NCBI GenBank assembly: GCA_050246735.1
Contig: JBFWVM010000001.1
Span: 338,004 to 402,003, forward strand
DNA: 64,000 nt
Origin: Parvibaculaceae bacterium
Lineage (GTDB): Bacteria; Pseudomonadota; Alphaproteobacteria; Rhizobiales; Aestuariivirgaceae
Reading direction: 5' to 3'
Part shown: positions 1,613-35,800 of the stretch, piece after piece
Layout of the letters: each line of letters starts with the position of its first letter
Numbering within the stretch: the first letter of the stretch is position 1
The notes under the pieces: generated by a model
What the model was told of the DNA's origin: nothing
Databases searched by the model: none
The model's input: only the letters and a program-made list of their open reading frames with translations
Made by a program: the position numbers and the translations under genes

Positions 1613-1816
1613 TCAATGACGGGAAGCGTCGATGACATCCAACAGGAGTTCCCGCAGCCGCGCAATGCCGGCCGACCGGCCCTCCTTGCGGTCGAGGCGG
1701 GCTATTTCGCACGCCGCCGCGGTGGCAACGTCCGCGTCCGGCGGAAGATGCATCAGCCAGGCCAGGAGAACGTCCTCCGGCTTCTGCTGCGAGAGCCGAT
1801 CCGGCGTATGCTTCAT
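1613..1816 (-). CDS. 67-aa hypothetical protein (MKHTPDRLSQQ...)
   Basis: ATG overlaps the Rieske gene TGA (ATGA), indicating translational coupling; helical-looking sequence. Confidence 0.65.
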   Translation of the reverse strand: MKHTPDRLSQQKPEDVLLAWLMHLPPDADVATAAACEIARLDRKEGRSAGIARLRELLLDVIDASRH

Positions 1817-3042
1817 GGCCTGCCGATCTCCTCCAGATACCATCCGACATAGCGCAGCTGGTTGTACTCCATGGGCGCGATCGGTCCCGGTACGAAATAG
1901 CGCGAACGCACGCCGCGCGCCGCGTGCTCGATAATCTTCTTGTCCTCCCCGGTGGTCACCTTCCACAGCCAGGTCAGCCTGGCGGGATCGTAGTCGCGCC
2001 CTTCCACCGCATCGCCGCGCACCAGCCAGATGAGCTCCATCTCGCAGCTGTCGACGGTCTTGGGAATGAAGCGATAGATCATGCCGTGGTCGGGATAACA
2101 GACGAGGAAGCTCGTTCCTCCGACATGGATCGAGGTGACGCCGCCGTCATACCGGCGGAACTTGCCCATCAGAGGCGCTACCGGCGAGCCGTCCTCGCTG
2201 CCGCTCGAGGCGCCGTCGTAAAGCGCATAGCGGAAGACGTCGATAGCCTCCTTGCCCGACAGCGAGTTCTGCCAGTGATTGCCGGAGGTGATGCTGATGC
2301 CGAGCGCGCAGGTACGATCTTCCATCTGGCGGTTCATATCGGCGATATGTTCGGCCGGCTGTTCGAGCGCGTGAGTCTTCGAATATTCGGGATGTGCTGG
2401 CCCGCAATGATAGCATTCGACATAGTTCTCGACGGCGAGCTTCCAGTTCGCCTCGATCGCATAGGTCTCGCGATGCGCGACCTTGGCCTCGCTCCAGCCA
2501 TATTGCCCGCAACTCGCCCGCAATGACTGCTCGACGATGGTGAAGTCCAGCGGGGCATCGGCGAAGGAAATGAAGACCAGGCCTTCCGCTACGCGGACAT
2601 GCAGTTGATGCAGGCCGTGCTTCTCGCGGTCGAAATCTCTGGGCATCAGGCGCGCAGCCTTGAGGCGTCCATCGATGGAATAGGTCCAGGCATGATAGGG
2701 GCATATGAAGAAACGGGCATTGCCCTTCGGCCTGGTGCAGACCTCGGCACCCCGGTGGCGGCAGACATTCAGGAAGGCGCGGATGGTGCCATCGATCCCA
2801 CGCGCGACGATCACCGCCTCGCGTTCGAGGTTGAACAGCTCGAAATCGCCGGGATTGGGCAGAATGCTGGCATGGCCGATGCAGTGCCAGTGGCGGCGGA
2901 TAACGCGCTCCATGTCGCGTTCAAAGACGTCGGCATCGGCATAGAAGGATCGCGGCAGGCCATGTCCTCTCCGGCAGCTCGCGATCAACTGGTCGATTTT
3001 GTCGCCCGGTCTGTCCTGATGAAGAAGTGCAACAGTCGTCAT
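1813..3042 (-). CDS. Rieske non-heme iron oxygenase alpha subunit (quaternary-amine demethylase-like group)
   Basis: CRHRG...CPYHAW Rieske motif; ENYVECYHC..AH mononuclear Fe ligands; C-terminal ED; start MTTVALL with GAGGA upstream. Confidence 0.93.
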   Translation of the reverse strand: MTTVALLHQDRPGDKIDQLIASCRRGHGLPRSFYADADVFERDMERVIRRHWHCIGHASILPNPGDFELFNLEREAVIVARGIDGTIRAFLNVCRHRGAEVCTRPKGNARFFICPYHAWTYSIDGRLKAARLMPRDFDREKHGLHQLHVRVAEGLVFISFADAPLDFTIVEQSLRASCGQYGWSEAKVAHRETYAIEANWKLAVENYVECYHCGPAHPEYSKTHALEQPAEHIADMNRQMEDRTCALGISITSGNHWQNSLSGKEAIDVFRYALYDGASSGSEDGSPVAPLMGKFRRYDGGVTSIHVGGTSFLVCYPDHGMIYRFIPKTVDSCEMELIWLVRGDAVEGRDYDPARLTWLWKVTTGEDKKIIEHAARGVRSRYFVPGPIAPMEYNQLRYVGWYLEEIGRP

Positions 3043-3182
3043 CTTCTCGTTCCGTCCTCGCAACCCATGAGCGTCGGCGGTGCAGGTACGGAAGAAGAGG
3101 GGAGATTTGGCCGATCGGCATGCGGAACACGCGCCCGGCAAATCGCCACTCGACCGCCCACCGCAGTCCGTCGGCAATGCTC

Positions 3183-3357
3183 GAGGCTGGTTTCCGGGCT
3201 TGGGACTGTCCTTGCCGGACGGCCGCCCCGCCTTCCCGGGCCAAAGCCCAGTGGCGATTGGAGCGGCAATGCATCCCTTACCGTTACGGGGGTAGCGCCG
3301 GTTTCGCACCGGCTTCCCAATTATCCTGCCCTACGAGGGCAGGCACCCAAAGCAACC
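3183..3357 (-). ncRNA. Cobalamin riboswitch upstream of the Rieske oxygenase
   Basis: Minus strand reads GGGAAGCCGGTGCGAAACCGGCGCTACCCCCGTAACGGTAA...GCCACTGGG...GGGAAGG...AGCCCGGAAACCAGCC (B12 box). Confidence 0.92.
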
Positions 3358-33065: not shown

Positions 33066-33181
33066 GGACTCACGATCTCCTGAATTTGCGTTCTCTTATG
33101 GGGTCGTTTCCGGGCCGTCAAGGTTGCGCGCGCGCCGCCGAGGGCGTATTCCAGCCGCTTTCAGCCGAGGATGAGAGTTCC

Positions 33182-33643
33182 ATGGGGCTTCGCGACGAGA
33201 TCAACGACAGCCTGAAAGAGGCGATGAAGTCGGGCGACAAAAGGCGCGTCTCGACGCTCCGGCTGGTCAATTCCGCCATCAAGGACCGCGACATCCAGAG
33301 CCGCACCGCGGGCCCCGACGCCGGGGTGAGCGATGCGCAGATCGTCGAGGTCCTGGCCAGGATGGTGAAGCAGCGCCAGGAAAGCCTCGAGATCTACGAG
33401 AAGGCAGGCAGGGCCGAGCTTGCCGCCCAGGAGCGCGAGGAGATCGCGATCATCCAGGGCTACATGCCGAAACAGCTTTCGGAAGAGGAAGTGAAGTCGG
33501 TCATCGCCGCGGTGATCAAGGAGGTCGGCGCCACCTCGGTCAAGGACATGGGCAAGGTCATGGGCGCGCTCAAGGCGAAATATGCCGGCCGGATGGACTT
33601 CGCCAGGGCCGGCGCGGTGATCAAGGGCCTGCTCGGCGCCTAG
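33182..33643 (+). CDS. GatB/YqeY domain protein
   Basis: KEAMKSGDK, KQRQES, KDMGKVM. Confidence 0.93.
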   Translation: MGLRDEINDSLKEAMKSGDKRRVSTLRLVNSAIKDRDIQSRTAGPDAGVSDAQIVEVLARMVKQRQESLEIYEKAGRAELAAQEREEIAIIQGYMPKQLSEEEVKSVIAAVIKEVGATSVKDMGKVMGALKAKYAGRMDFARAGAVIKGLLGA

Positions 33644-33753
33644 CGCGCATCCCGGCGAAGTGGACTCACTTCGCCGAAAAGGATTGGCGCGAAATCAATA
33701 TCTTGGGAGCAAATCCTTATCGCCAAAGTCTTCAACTTTGGCGGGATTTGCTC
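33641..33753 (+). repeat. Palindromic repeat copy 2 with second hairpin (RIME-like bipartite)
   Basis: 67/70 match to 4269-4338; extra stem GAGCAAATCC..CGCCAAAGT/ACTTTGGCG GGATTTGCTC at 33707-33753. Confidence 0.9.
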
Positions 33754-33768: not shown

Positions 33769-34317
33769 TCACTGCAGGTTGGTGTGGCGATGGCCCATCG
33801 TGCGGTGCGCGTCGGGCGTTGCGCCGGCCAGGCACGCCACGACGCTGTCGAGCAGGAGGAGAGAGGCCTGCTCGAACAGGCTGCCGCCGAACTGCCGCGT
33901 CCCGCCTGCCGGCACGGGAAGGACGACATCGGCGATGCCCGCCAATGTGCCCGCCGGCCTGTGGGTCAGCGTCGCGACCTTGGCGCCTTCACCCCTGGCG
34001 ATGCGCGCGAAGCCGACGCTGACCGGGGTCTCGCCAGAGCCCGAGACGACGAGCAGCCCATCGCCTGTCCGGATGGACGGCGCCGAGACCTCGCCGACGA
34101 AATGCACGCTGCGTCCGAGATGCATGAAGCGCATCGCCGCCATCTGCGCCACGAGGCCGGAACGTCCCTGGCCCGAGAAGAACCAGCGCTGCGCCGGATC
34201 GCCGAAGGCGTCGACGAGACGGGCGAAGGCCGCCGCGTCCACCCGCGCGAGAAGGGCGGCTATTTCCTCTCCCACGGCCAGCCATGGCCGGGATCGGGCA
34301 GTCTGTCGCGGATCCAT
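33769..34317 (-). CDS. hxlB: 6-phospho-3-hexuloisomerase (SIS domain)
   Basis: SGQGRSG, SGSGET, GSLFEQ, HTNLQ; SD GGGAGG. Confidence 0.88.
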   Translation of the reverse strand: MDPRQTARSRPWLAVGEEIAALLARVDAAAFARLVDAFGDPAQRWFFSGQGRSGLVAQMAAMRFMHLGRSVHFVGEVSAPSIRTGDGLLVVSGSGETPVSVGFARIARGEGAKVATLTHRPAGTLAGIADVVLPVPAGGTRQFGGSLFEQASLLLLDSVVACLAGATPDAHRTMGHRHTNLQ

Positions 34318-34919
34318 TGCGAAACCTCCCTTGGGTTGGCCGATTCCGTGATCGCCGTGCCGACCACGACGATCTCGGGCGCCGCGGCGATGACGGAGGA
34401 AAGCGTGTCGGGACCGATGCCGCCGGCCAGCGACACGCGGAAGCCGCGCCGGCGCATCTCCTTCACCGCGTCGATATGCGAGGTCGATCTGTCGCCGGCG
34501 AGGCGCGCATCGGTCGGAGAATGGACGGCGACATAGCCGAAGCTCTCCGGAAAGACCGCGTCGCGGGGCAGGAGCTTGGCCTTGCCCGATTCGGTGATGG
34601 TGTCGACGACGACCGAGGCGCCGAAGGCTTCGGCGCGCCGGCCCACCGTTTCATGCGTCGCCCTCGACGCGCAGGACAGGACCGTCATGAAGGCGGCGCC
34701 GGCGCCGAACACCATGTCGGCCTCCAATGCGCCCGCATCGACGGTCTTGGTGTCCGCCATGATCCGGACATCGGGACAGAGCTCGCGCGCCGTCGCGATG
34801 GCCGAAAGGCCGAAGCGCTTCAGCACCGGCGTGCCGATCTCGACGATATCGGCGAAAGGCTCGACCAGCGGCAGGAGCGACAGATGTTCCGGCTTGTCGA
34901 AGGCGATCTGCAAGAGCAC
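34260..34919 (-). CDS. hxlA: 3-hexulose-6-phosphate synthase (OMPDC/HPS barrel)
   Basis: LQIAFD, IVEIGTP, ADTKTVDAG, LAGGI, VVGTAIT; GTG start. Confidence 0.85.
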   Translation of the reverse strand: MLLQIAFDKPEHLSLLPLVEPFADIVEIGTPVLKRFGLSAIATARELCPDVRIMADTKTVDAGALEADMVFGAGAAFMTVLSCASRATHETVGRRAEAFGASVVVDTITESGKAKLLPRDAVFPESFGYVAVHSPTDARLAGDRSTSHIDAVKEMRRRGFRVSLAGGIGPDTLSSVIAAAPEIVVVGTAITESANPREVSQWIRDRLPDPGHGWPWERK

Positions 34920-35092
34920 GTTTGTTTCCCCGGGACCCGGCTGAGGATGGACGGTGGAGGTTCTAGCAATGTGAGCGGAATACCGCCATGACCGTCTGGG
35001 GCCGGAGCGCGGGAGCGATCGTCCGCTTTTGCCGTCGGGTCGTTGCGGCAGGCGGCGTTCTGGTGCACGATGGGATCGTTGGGGGAAGTCAC

Positions 35093-35800
35093 GTGAAGAA
35101 ACTGCTCCTGGCCATGGCATTGACCTTGTTGCCCGCAGGCGCCGTGGCCGACGAGCCGGCCGCCTTTGACTGGAGCGGCGCCTATGCCGGCGCTCATCTG
35201 GGTTACGGCGAGGCCGACGTCGATTACGACTTCGCCGCCATAGATGAAGGTTTCTTCAACGAGGGCGAGGGGACCCGGGTCAGTGAGCGGCTCGACGATC
35301 TGATCGGCGGCGTCCAGGCCGGGCTCAACTGGCAGTCCGGCAATATCGTCCTCGGTCTGGAAGGAGCCTTCACCTGGCTCGGCTTCGATGAACGCTCGAC
35401 CAGCCCGTTCTTTCCTGAAAGCGACGGATTCAGGACGGGCATCGATTGGTCCGCCGCCATCACGCCCCGCGCCGGCATCGCCTTCGACAACGTCCTGCTC
35501 TACGCGAAAGGCGGCGTCGCCTTCGCCGACGTCACGGGGCGCATCCAGGACAATTTGAACGAGCTGTTCGTCGAGAAGACCAAGACGCAGGTGGGCTGGA
35601 CGATCGGTGCCGGCGCCGATTATGCCTTGAGCGAAAACTGGATCATCGGCGCCGAAGGCAACTACTATGATTTCGGATCGTTCGATGCCGGCGAAAATAC
35701 CCGGACGTTCGAGGGTGTGGAAACGCCGAGTCTTTCGGACCATGAGATCGACACGACCATGTGGTCGGTCCTGGCGCGCATAAGCTTCATGTTCAGATGA
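35093..35800 (+). CDS. Omp25/RopB-type outer membrane beta-barrel
   Basis: Signal peptide; FDWSGAYAG, GWTIGAGADYA; paralogue of 13118. Confidence 0.88.
   Translation: MKKLLLAMALTLLPAGAVADEPAAFDWSGAYAGAHLGYGEADVDYDFAAIDEGFFNEGEGTRVSERLDDLIGGVQAGLNWQSGNIVLGLEGAFTWLGFDERSTSPFFPESDGFRTGIDWSAAITPRAGIAFDNVLLYAKGGVAFADVTGRIQDNLNELFVEKTKTQVGWTIGAGADYALSENWIIGAEGNYYDFGSFDAGENTRTFEGVETPSLSDHEIDTTMWSVLARISFMFR

Follow-up and report, generated by a model that had tools for sequence, protein, structure and literature searches.

What do two overlapping genes for enzymes of the hexulose phosphate type do in a rhizobial genome, and how is the DNA that they share kept readable in both frames? The locus lies in a window of 64,000 nucleotides, the whole stretch of DNA analysed here, from a Parvibaculaceae bacterium of the Rhizobiales. 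An earlier note on this window had read the two genes as hxlA and hxlB of the ribulose monophosphate (RuMP) pathway, an acquired pair for formaldehyde detoxification or assimilation that might serve demethylases such as a Rieske enzyme. [quoted passage not shown]

Structure and conservation of the overlapping pair

The HPS-like gene, a member of the OMPDC suprafamily, occupies 34260..34919 on the minus strand and encodes 219 aa, from a GTG start at 34919 to a TAG stop at 34262-34260. The PHI-like gene, which encodes 182 aa with a single SIS domain, lies on the same strand at 33769..34317 and starts with an ATG at 34317. The placing of the hxlB Shine-Dalgarno (SD) sequence and ATG inside hxlA, with a 58-nt out-of-frame overlap, was confirmed: 34260..34317 encodes HPS residues 201-219 plus the stop codon and, in the -1 frame relative to HPS, PHI residues 1-19. 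The SD of the PHI gene, AAGGGAGG at 34325..34332 on the minus strand, is separated from the ATG by a 7-nt spacer and falls within the HPS coding sequence, in the codons that read Asn-Pro-Arg-Glu-Val in the window. The ATG itself is part of cA-TGG-Atc, where TGG is the codon of the invariant HPS Trp202 and the Pro-x-Glu codons directly ahead of it carry the SD; a purine-rich GAGG/GGAG block stands at the position of the PHI SD in related loci.

Both start sites are conserved. The MLLQ N-terminus of the HPS-like protein is found at the same position in all 219-aa relatives; a longer ORF of 286 aa from an ATG at 35120 was rejected on account of this MLLQ start and its own lack of conservation. 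The N-terminal MD of the PHI-like protein is at the same position in 68 of 77 loci, and a later GTG start at residue 15 was discarded because it has no SD and the ATG is kept in relatives. Both ORFs are intact in the window, with start codons, SD and overlap unchanged, and the pair is under purifying selection (dN/dS of 0.13-0.28 against relatives).

Across the subfamily, every locus that has both genes (n = 77) shows the order synthase-isomerase and an overlap, which is exactly 58 nt long in 68 loci and 25-79 nt in the remaining nine; loci from metagenome-assembled genomes include a few frameshifted copies (L014, L056, L075, L083, L084, L086). We analysed dual coding in the 56 loci with intact and identical geometry. 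Outside the overlap the conservation of third codon positions is 0.64. Within it the value rises to 0.84 for the HPS frame and 0.87 for the PHI frame, whereas the 327 remaining 19-codon windows across both genes peak at 0.745. PHI-synonymous sites are invariant in 56 of 56 loci where they form the second positions of HPS Ile203, Trp214, Pro215, Asp217 and the stop codon, and HPS-synonymous sites are likewise invariant where they form the first positions of PHI Trp12, Glu18 and Ile19. The synonymous sites of each frame are thus frozen by the other frame, and therefore both frames are under selection and the overlap is truly dual-coding. Its conservation across two phyla, together with that of the third positions, rules out chance or misannotation. 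The 58-nt overlap, shared by dozens of soil bacteria, is an ancient trait of the subfamily as a whole.

RNA structure at the junction was considered as the cause of this conservation and dismissed, as folding energies in seven loci (MFE z-scores of -1.7 to +1.5, no common fold) show nothing beyond shuffled sequences and dual coding accounts for the conservation. A programmed -1 frameshift that would give an HPS-PHI fusion was also rejected; the overlap holds no slippery heptamer of the form X XXY YYZ, and the conserved SD and ATG favour separate initiation. The position of start and SD, the conserved arrangement and the constraint on two frames are all those of a translationally coupled overlapping pair, and we propose such coupling here. 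Ribosomes finishing the synthase gene would cross the SD and ATG of the isomerase 58 nt before the synthase stop codon, so that both enzymes would be made together.

The AlphaFold2 (AF2) models suggest why the overlap is tolerated. On the HPS side it covers the end of the last helix (residues 196-206) and a low-confidence tail (207-219, pLDDT 58), and on the PHI side a low-confidence leader (1-10, pLDDT 48) and the start of helix 1 from residue 11. The PHI leader is encoded opposite the final part of the HPS helix, and the start of PHI helix 1 opposite most of the HPS tail, which suggests that across most of the overlap a floppy segment of one protein lies opposite a helix of the other. In actinobacterial members whose overlaps are shorter, the G-W-P-W tail of HPS is missing and yet the PHI Trp is kept; the HPS tail therefore seems to be an extension that was overprinted later and has come under constraint since then, and its conserved G-W-P could be a contact to the isomerase. 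A same-strand overlap of this length (58 nt) kept across two phyla is a clean natural case, useful for the study of how overprinting and translational coupling persist.

The pair stands alone in the window, with neither a kinase nor a transporter nor a regulator adjacent. Upstream, an outer-membrane beta-barrel gene (34988-35800, plus strand) diverges from the HPS-like gene, and the promoter or promoters of the pair must lie within the 68-nt intergenic region between them (34920..34987). This region holds no match to the sigma-70 consensus, and only TTGCTAGAA of it is common to two relatives in the genus. Upstream of the HPS gene TGTGAGCGGAATA resembles a LacI-type operator, a candidate that we rejected as it is not conserved in the genus. 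Downstream, a YqeY gene (33086-33643, plus strand) converges on the PHI-like gene, only 125 nt from its stop codon, and a 10-bp hairpin between the two (33720..33744) is a candidate bidirectional terminator. A PCuAC/SCO1 copper cluster, an amidase and an ECF sigma factor are encoded further out in the window. No formaldehyde-type regulator (HxlR or FrmR) adjoins the pair. That HxlR and methanol dehydrogenase genes are missing nearby, as the earlier note had it, holds more widely: there is no HxlR-family gene on the contig (C1) and no PQQ alcohol dehydrogenase over the cut-off in the whole genome.

Family placement of the two proteins

The HPS and PHI motifs claimed for the two proteins are borne out by profile searches. 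The HPS-like protein matches PF00215 with 83.8 bits, and its best NCBIfam model is TIGR03128 (HxlA) at 150 bits, ahead of the models for 3-keto-L-gulonate-6-phosphate decarboxylase (KGPDC) at 91 (NF009832) and 77 bits; the score stays below the TIGR03128 equivalog cut-off of 200 bits. Its closest solved relatives are 3f4w (a putative HPS of Salmonella and the top sequence match, 1e-27), 3ajx (HPS of Mycobacterium gastri) and 9lj9 (a fused archaeal HPS-PHI), with KGPDC structures behind. The AF2 model (pLDDT 87.4) is a (beta/alpha)8 barrel of the OMPDC suprafamily, for which Foldseek returned 3ajx and 3f4w at the top with TM scores of 0.79-0.87. The catalytic and Mg-binding core, D11, E33, D62-x-K64, D67 and H136 in UlaD numbering, is kept by the window protein and by each of the 21 other aligned rows of the clade and its loci. 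At positions 112/139/169/192 the window protein has D/T/A/T and the clade D, T/S, A and S/T, as against E/R/T/R in UlaD and D/(L,Y,T)/A/(G,S,A) in named hxlA proteins. According to the titles of PDB entries, E112D/R139V/T169A are HPS-enhancing changes in KGPDC, studied with bound D-ribulose-5-P.

A tree of 148 proteins, made up of 118 full-length representatives from a library of 1.84 billion proteins, 22 proteins from related loci and eight annotated plasmid references, was built with a quick LG+G4 search, branch support being SH-aLRT only. A branch with 99% aLRT sets the UlaD of Escherichia coli and a UlaD-like protein of Ligilactobacillus apart from all other rows. The phylogeny against HPS and KGPDC that had been suggested as a check thus gives no clustering with KGPDC, and the window protein falls on the HPS side of the split, within a 42-row lineage of its own (aLRT 86-94) that connects to the named hxlA groups through an unresolved polytomy only. 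By sequence, tree, active-site residues and fold the first protein goes with the hexulose-6-phosphate synthases and not with the 3-keto-L-gulonate-6-phosphate decarboxylases, and its predicted reaction is the condensation of ribulose-5-P with formaldehyde.

The PHI-like protein is a single SIS domain of about 180 aa (PF01380, 39.9 bits) that has the SGSG(E)T and C-terminal HxN motifs of 6-phospho-3-hexuloisomerases. Its best NCBIfam model is TIGR03127 (HxlB) at 147.8 bits, again below the equivalog cut-off (160 bits), and its best solved relatives are 9lj9, 1m3s (YckF of Bacillus subtilis), 1vim (AF1796) and 1jeo (MJ1247). The AF2 model has a pLDDT of 86.8. The columns GxGRSG, AMRxMH, SGSG, GSLFE and HxN are common to its clade and to five named or annotated hxlB-type proteins; the clade lacks an 11-residue loop before GSLFE that is found in all named hxlB proteins. 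Both proteins are below the equivalog cut-offs, and the pair forms a separate subfamily. A second PHI-like gene of the genome lies inside a sugar operon, which shows that such sub-cut-off SIS proteins serve sugar metabolism.

Known systems share parts of this arrangement. The hxlA-hxlB pair of the B. subtilis type is a formaldehyde detoxification operon under HxlR. Its representative on a plasmid of Priestia megaterium has the synthase-isomerase order, the families and the catalytic and HPS-specific residues of the window pair, but differs in a 7-nt gap between the genes, an adjacent winged-helix regulator, another lineage in the tree and an identity of only ~30-35%; it is also from Bacillus-type hxlB that the window PHI is set apart by the missing 11-residue loop. 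The HPS of M. gastri (3ajx) is the best structural match of the window HPS (TM 0.82-0.87) and has the same residue pattern. The actinobacterial RuMP genes (32-35% identity), unlike the window pair, have the isomerase first, no overlap, and neighbours linked to formaldehyde or the pentose phosphate pathway, as in the SIS-HPS-mycothiol formaldehyde dehydrogenase arrangement of Streptomyces or hxlB-hxlA-zwf-gnd of Rhodococcus, of which zwf and short gnd genes are also present in the genome of the window. The neighbours of named hxlAB genes are zwf-gnd, mycothiol formaldehyde dehydrogenase or winged-helix (HxlR-like) regulators, and named pairs do not overlap: apart from the Priestia gap, those of Rhodococcus, Salmonella, Chondrinema and Streptomyces are in reverse order.

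The archaeal fused HPS-PHI runs in reverse, towards ribulose-5-P. The fused protein 9lj9, the PHI part of which is the best solved match of the window PHI, resembles the window pair in having synthase followed by isomerase in tight stoichiometric coupling, but is one polypeptide, whereas the window encodes two proteins in two frames with no slippery site seen that would fuse them. A Salmonella plasmid cluster, ptsG-GPI-hxlB-hxlA (PDB 3f4w), is like the subfamily in its Thr at 139 and its linkage to sugar uptake, and its GPI-family gene provides a glucose-6-P isomerase link as in Mesorhizobium loci; it is unlike the subfamily in using a PTS and not an ABC transporter and kinase, in its isomerase-synthase order, in lacking an overlap and in its lineage in the tree.

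Genomic context and the role of the pair

We clustered the ORFs around the pair in 80 loci and scanned them with Pfam and NCBIfam models, which gave four types of context. Outside the genus of the window the pair is almost always found in sugar or polyol operons with ABC transporters, kinases and LacI or RpiR regulators (~60 loci), and in no related locus among the 80 do C1 genes or formaldehyde-type regulators stand beside it. Type A has an RbsB-like CUT2 substrate-binding protein (SBP), a permease and a single-domain ATPase, then hps-phi, then a fructokinase-like PfkB and LacI; it is carried by Mesorhizobium, Shinella, Ensifer, Paracoccus, Roseiarcus and Pseudonocardia and, with an added mannitol-dehydrogenase-family gene, by Micromonospora, Georgenia, Leucobacter and Labrys. 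Among solved structures 5DKV is the closest to the linked SBP; it may hold D-tagatose, which is only a lead to the ligand, and our literature search on this PDB code found nothing. Type B, found in ~18 Mesorhizobium species, has a xylulokinase-like FGGY kinase, a shikimate-DH-like protein and a cupin glucose-6-P isomerase diverging from hps-phi-CUT1 ABC genes; one locus, that of M. tianshanense (L021), is alone in also having an RpiR regulator and an MBL-fold hydrolase. Type C is hps-phi-FGGY-CUT1 in other Alphaproteobacteria, and type D, in the genus of the window, is hps-phi-PfkB diverging from the outer-membrane protein gene. Seven of the nine loci fetched from this genus, the window counted among the nine, keep hps-phi-PfkB, and the kinase is missing in the window and in one relative (L012). 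The PfkB orthologue is absent from the whole genome of the window (best match 31% identity), and the window copy is thus stripped down: it has no transporter and has lost the kinase.

The reading that we favour, with about an even chance of being correct, is that the pair forms a translationally coupled HPS/PHI shunt for formaldehyde. The two-gene operon would provide the synthase and the isomerase of a distinct, horizontally spread subfamily, which would catalyse ribulose-5-P + formaldehyde <-> D-arabino-3-hexulose-6-P <-> fructose-6-P; the reaction, the direction in which it runs and its role in the cell are what we infer. As the kinase is lost and no transporter is adjacent, both substrates would have to come from central metabolism, and an intact pair under purifying selection without kinase, transporter or regulator is most simply explained by central-metabolite substrates, namely ribulose-5-P and fructose-6-P. 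Most likely the pair would then fix formaldehyde alongside the glutathione-dependent pathway, and its product would be recycled via glucose-6-P dehydrogenase and a short 6-phosphogluconate dehydrogenase in a dissimilatory RuMP cycle. The genome encodes a glutathione-dependent formaldehyde dehydrogenase, two zwf genes over the cut-off and a short gnd-like gene. Its many Rieske oxygenases, including one of the betaine type at 1613-3357 of the window, are possible sources of formaldehyde. The betaine-type gene is unlinked, ~31 kb away, and the proposal that the pair serves a Rieske demethylase in a formaldehyde role found no support: no evidence ties the pair to formaldehyde or to that oxygenase, and relatives keep the subfamily in sugar or polyol operons. 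Against the shunt count the sub-cut-off scores, the lineage apart from named hxlA, the sugar-operon context without C1 genes, the lack of an adjacent formaldehyde-type regulator, the missing PHI loop and the second PHI-like gene in a sugar operon.

The second-ranked reading is that the pair is the core of an uncharacterized sugar or polyol catabolic route, of which the window holds a trimmed copy with the kinase encoded elsewhere; we regard this as quite possible, if short of an even chance. A ketose, obtained by ABC uptake or from a polyol through the mannitol-dehydrogenase-family enzyme, would be phosphorylated by the linked PfkB or FGGY kinase, the SIS isomerase would shift the carbonyl from C2 to C3, and the synthase would split the 3-hexulose-6-P into pentulose-5-P and formaldehyde or handle a stereoisomer other than D-arabino-3-hexulose-6-P. 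The transporters, kinases and sugar-type regulators of types A, B and C, the PfkB kept by most loci of the genus and the separate lineage with its sub-cut-off scores and PHI loop deletion all agree with such a route, and the Salmonella plasmid cluster is another sugar-linked pair. However, the catalytic and HPS-specific residues are all canonical, so nothing in the sequence calls for a new substrate, and that the genome of the window and L012 kept intact genes despite the loss of the kinase is easier to understand with central-metabolite substrates. We found no paper on such a pathway, nor any on this HPS/PHI subfamily or on HPS/PHI in sugar operons, and we know of no bacterial precedent for the release of formaldehyde in sugar catabolism, which also counts against this route. 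The subfamily as a whole may, though this is less likely than not, be the core of an undescribed rhizobial and actinobacterial sugar or polyol pathway and not a formaldehyde detoxification system. In that pathway a kinase-made ketohexose-6-phosphate would be converted to 3-hexulose-6-phosphate and on to pentulose-5-phosphate and formaldehyde ('reverse RuMP'); alternatively, the enzymes would act on a non-canonical stereoisomer. That the pair is constantly linked to genes for sugar transport and kinases suggests that RuMP-type enzymes have a role outside methylotrophy.

That the window pair could instead be a functionless remnant of a longer operon, not yet decayed, is suggested by the missing PfkB that most loci of the genus retain, by the short distance from the PHI stop codon to YqeY and by the lack of an adjacent transporter or regulator; the intact ORFs, the low dN/dS (0.13-0.24 against the nearest relatives) and the unchanged starts, SD and overlap speak against it and make it improbable. 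Lowest of all, with the slightest of chances, we rank the reading of the first gene product as a UlaD/SgbH-like 3-keto-acid-6-phosphate decarboxylase that would work in an ascorbate- or gulonate-type pathway. E. coli UlaD/SgbH shares the suprafamily, the (beta/alpha)8 fold and the Mg/enediolate catalytic core of the window HPS, the KGPDC models do match at 77-91 bits, and an FGGY kinase and an MBL-fold hydrolase weakly like UlaG occur in Mesorhizobium contexts. Nevertheless, the window protein is separated from UlaD by the 99% aLRT branch, the HPS pattern stands in place of all four KGPDC specificity residues (E112/R139/T169/R192), the gene always comes with a PHI-type partner, and no UlaE- or UlaF-type epimerase is encoded in any locus examined. 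The divergent sugar-phosphate specificity that had been offered as an alternative to formaldehyde is still alive, except in its UlaD/SgbH (KGPDC) form, against which tree, specificity residues and fold speak.

Distribution and spread

The genome has one HPS-like gene. By the names that its nearest proteins and loci bear, its genus is Taklimakanibacter or one near it (Aestuariivirgaceae, Hyphomicrobiales). The gene is present in 10 of 10 other genomes of the genus and in none of 14 other genera of the family, a patchy distribution that fits the acquisition proposed in the earlier note. Such genes are rare in Alphaproteobacteria: of 400 evenly drawn alphaproteobacterial genomes, none had a match at E<=1e-20. 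Besides Taklimakanibacter, the subfamily occurs in Mesorhizobium, Labrys, Shinella, Ensifer, Roseiarcus, Rhodobacterales and several Actinomycetota. Among 185,579 species genomes, a pattern scan found 88 carriers. They include Mesorhizobium, with at least 20 species that carry the gene at 77-82% identity, Labrys, Shinella, Ensifer adhaerens, Paracoccus, Roseiarcus and Rhodobacteraceae and, on the actinobacterial side, Pseudonocardia, Micromonospora, Georgenia, Leucobacter and other Actinomycetota. One EC-number survey reported no HPS among the rhizobia chosen for it (PMC12628762). The NCBI name of the relatives is only 'OMP decarboxylase / HUMPS family protein', in these Mesorhizobium species as in other rhizobia, and EC surveys therefore report HPS as lacking; models of C1 and sugar metabolism in rhizobia may accordingly be incomplete.

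In the tree the alphaproteobacterial rows are nested among actinobacterial ones, with moderate support only, and we propose that the subfamily has spread horizontally. Composition gives no signal of a recent foreign origin, as the pair (GC 0.69, GC3 0.85) is like its neighbours, and any transfer into the genus is therefore old.

A loop missing from the PHI-like protein

Alignment of the window's PHI-like protein with its relatives and with named hxlB-type proteins (alignment A2) reveals that all PHI members of the overlapped subfamily, i.e. the HPS/PHI pairs related to that of the window, lack an 11-residue loop directly N-terminal to the catalytic GSLFE motif (columns ~166-176), the site of the missing loop in the window's protein being at residues ~139-140. 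The loop is present in all five of the named or annotated hxlB-type proteins in the alignment, and reads SPKDQSKG..YKT in the Priestia protein. In some relatives the hps or phi gene is frameshifted (L014, identical to L007, at 2667-3157; L056, L075, L083, L084 and L086); all of these are MAGs, and the frameshifts represent either assembly errors or real pseudogenes.

Surroundings of the pair

Around 50 nt upstream of the GTG of the HPS-like gene, on the minus strand within window positions 34920-34987, lies the motif TTGCTAGAA, which is common to the window and two relatives from the genus (L013 and L020), while the rest of the upstream region is variable; it may be a promoter element. The Rieske domain (2650-2892, minus strand, within the ORF 1813-3309), proposed in the earlier note as part of a demethylase possibly served by the pair, is 31 kb away, and in relatives the Rieske gene and the pair have no context in common. 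Where the pair in relatives is linked to a CUT2-type transporter, the ATPase of that transporter is ~253 amino acids long (L019:7226-7987 and equivalents) and has one nucleotide-binding domain, whereas the usual RbsA-type ATPase is duplicated; it resembles FrcA of the Sinorhizobium fructose system.

PHI-like genes in other sugar contexts

The window's own genome contains a second PHI-like SIS gene (contig C8, 199189-199719; L104:8172-8723, plus strand), which has no HPS partner, shares 35% identity with the PHI of the window and scores 156.7 bits against the HxlB model TIGR03127, below the curated cut-off of 160 bits. It is placed between the SBP and permease genes of a CUT1 ABC sugar operon, in a neighbourhood with a SorC-type regulator, a MalK ATPase, two SMP-30 lactonases and a 3-hydroxyacyl-CoA-DH-family gene. 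The Salmonella IncI conjugative plasmid NZ_MT507880.1 carries a single block (L091, 3901-7636) made up of genes for a ptsG-like PTS IIBC and a member of the glucose-6-P isomerase family, together with hxlB and hxlA, and flanked by IS26/IS1 copies and the resistance genes sul3, mef(B) and tet(B). This block is a mobile HPS/PHI module, linked to sugar.
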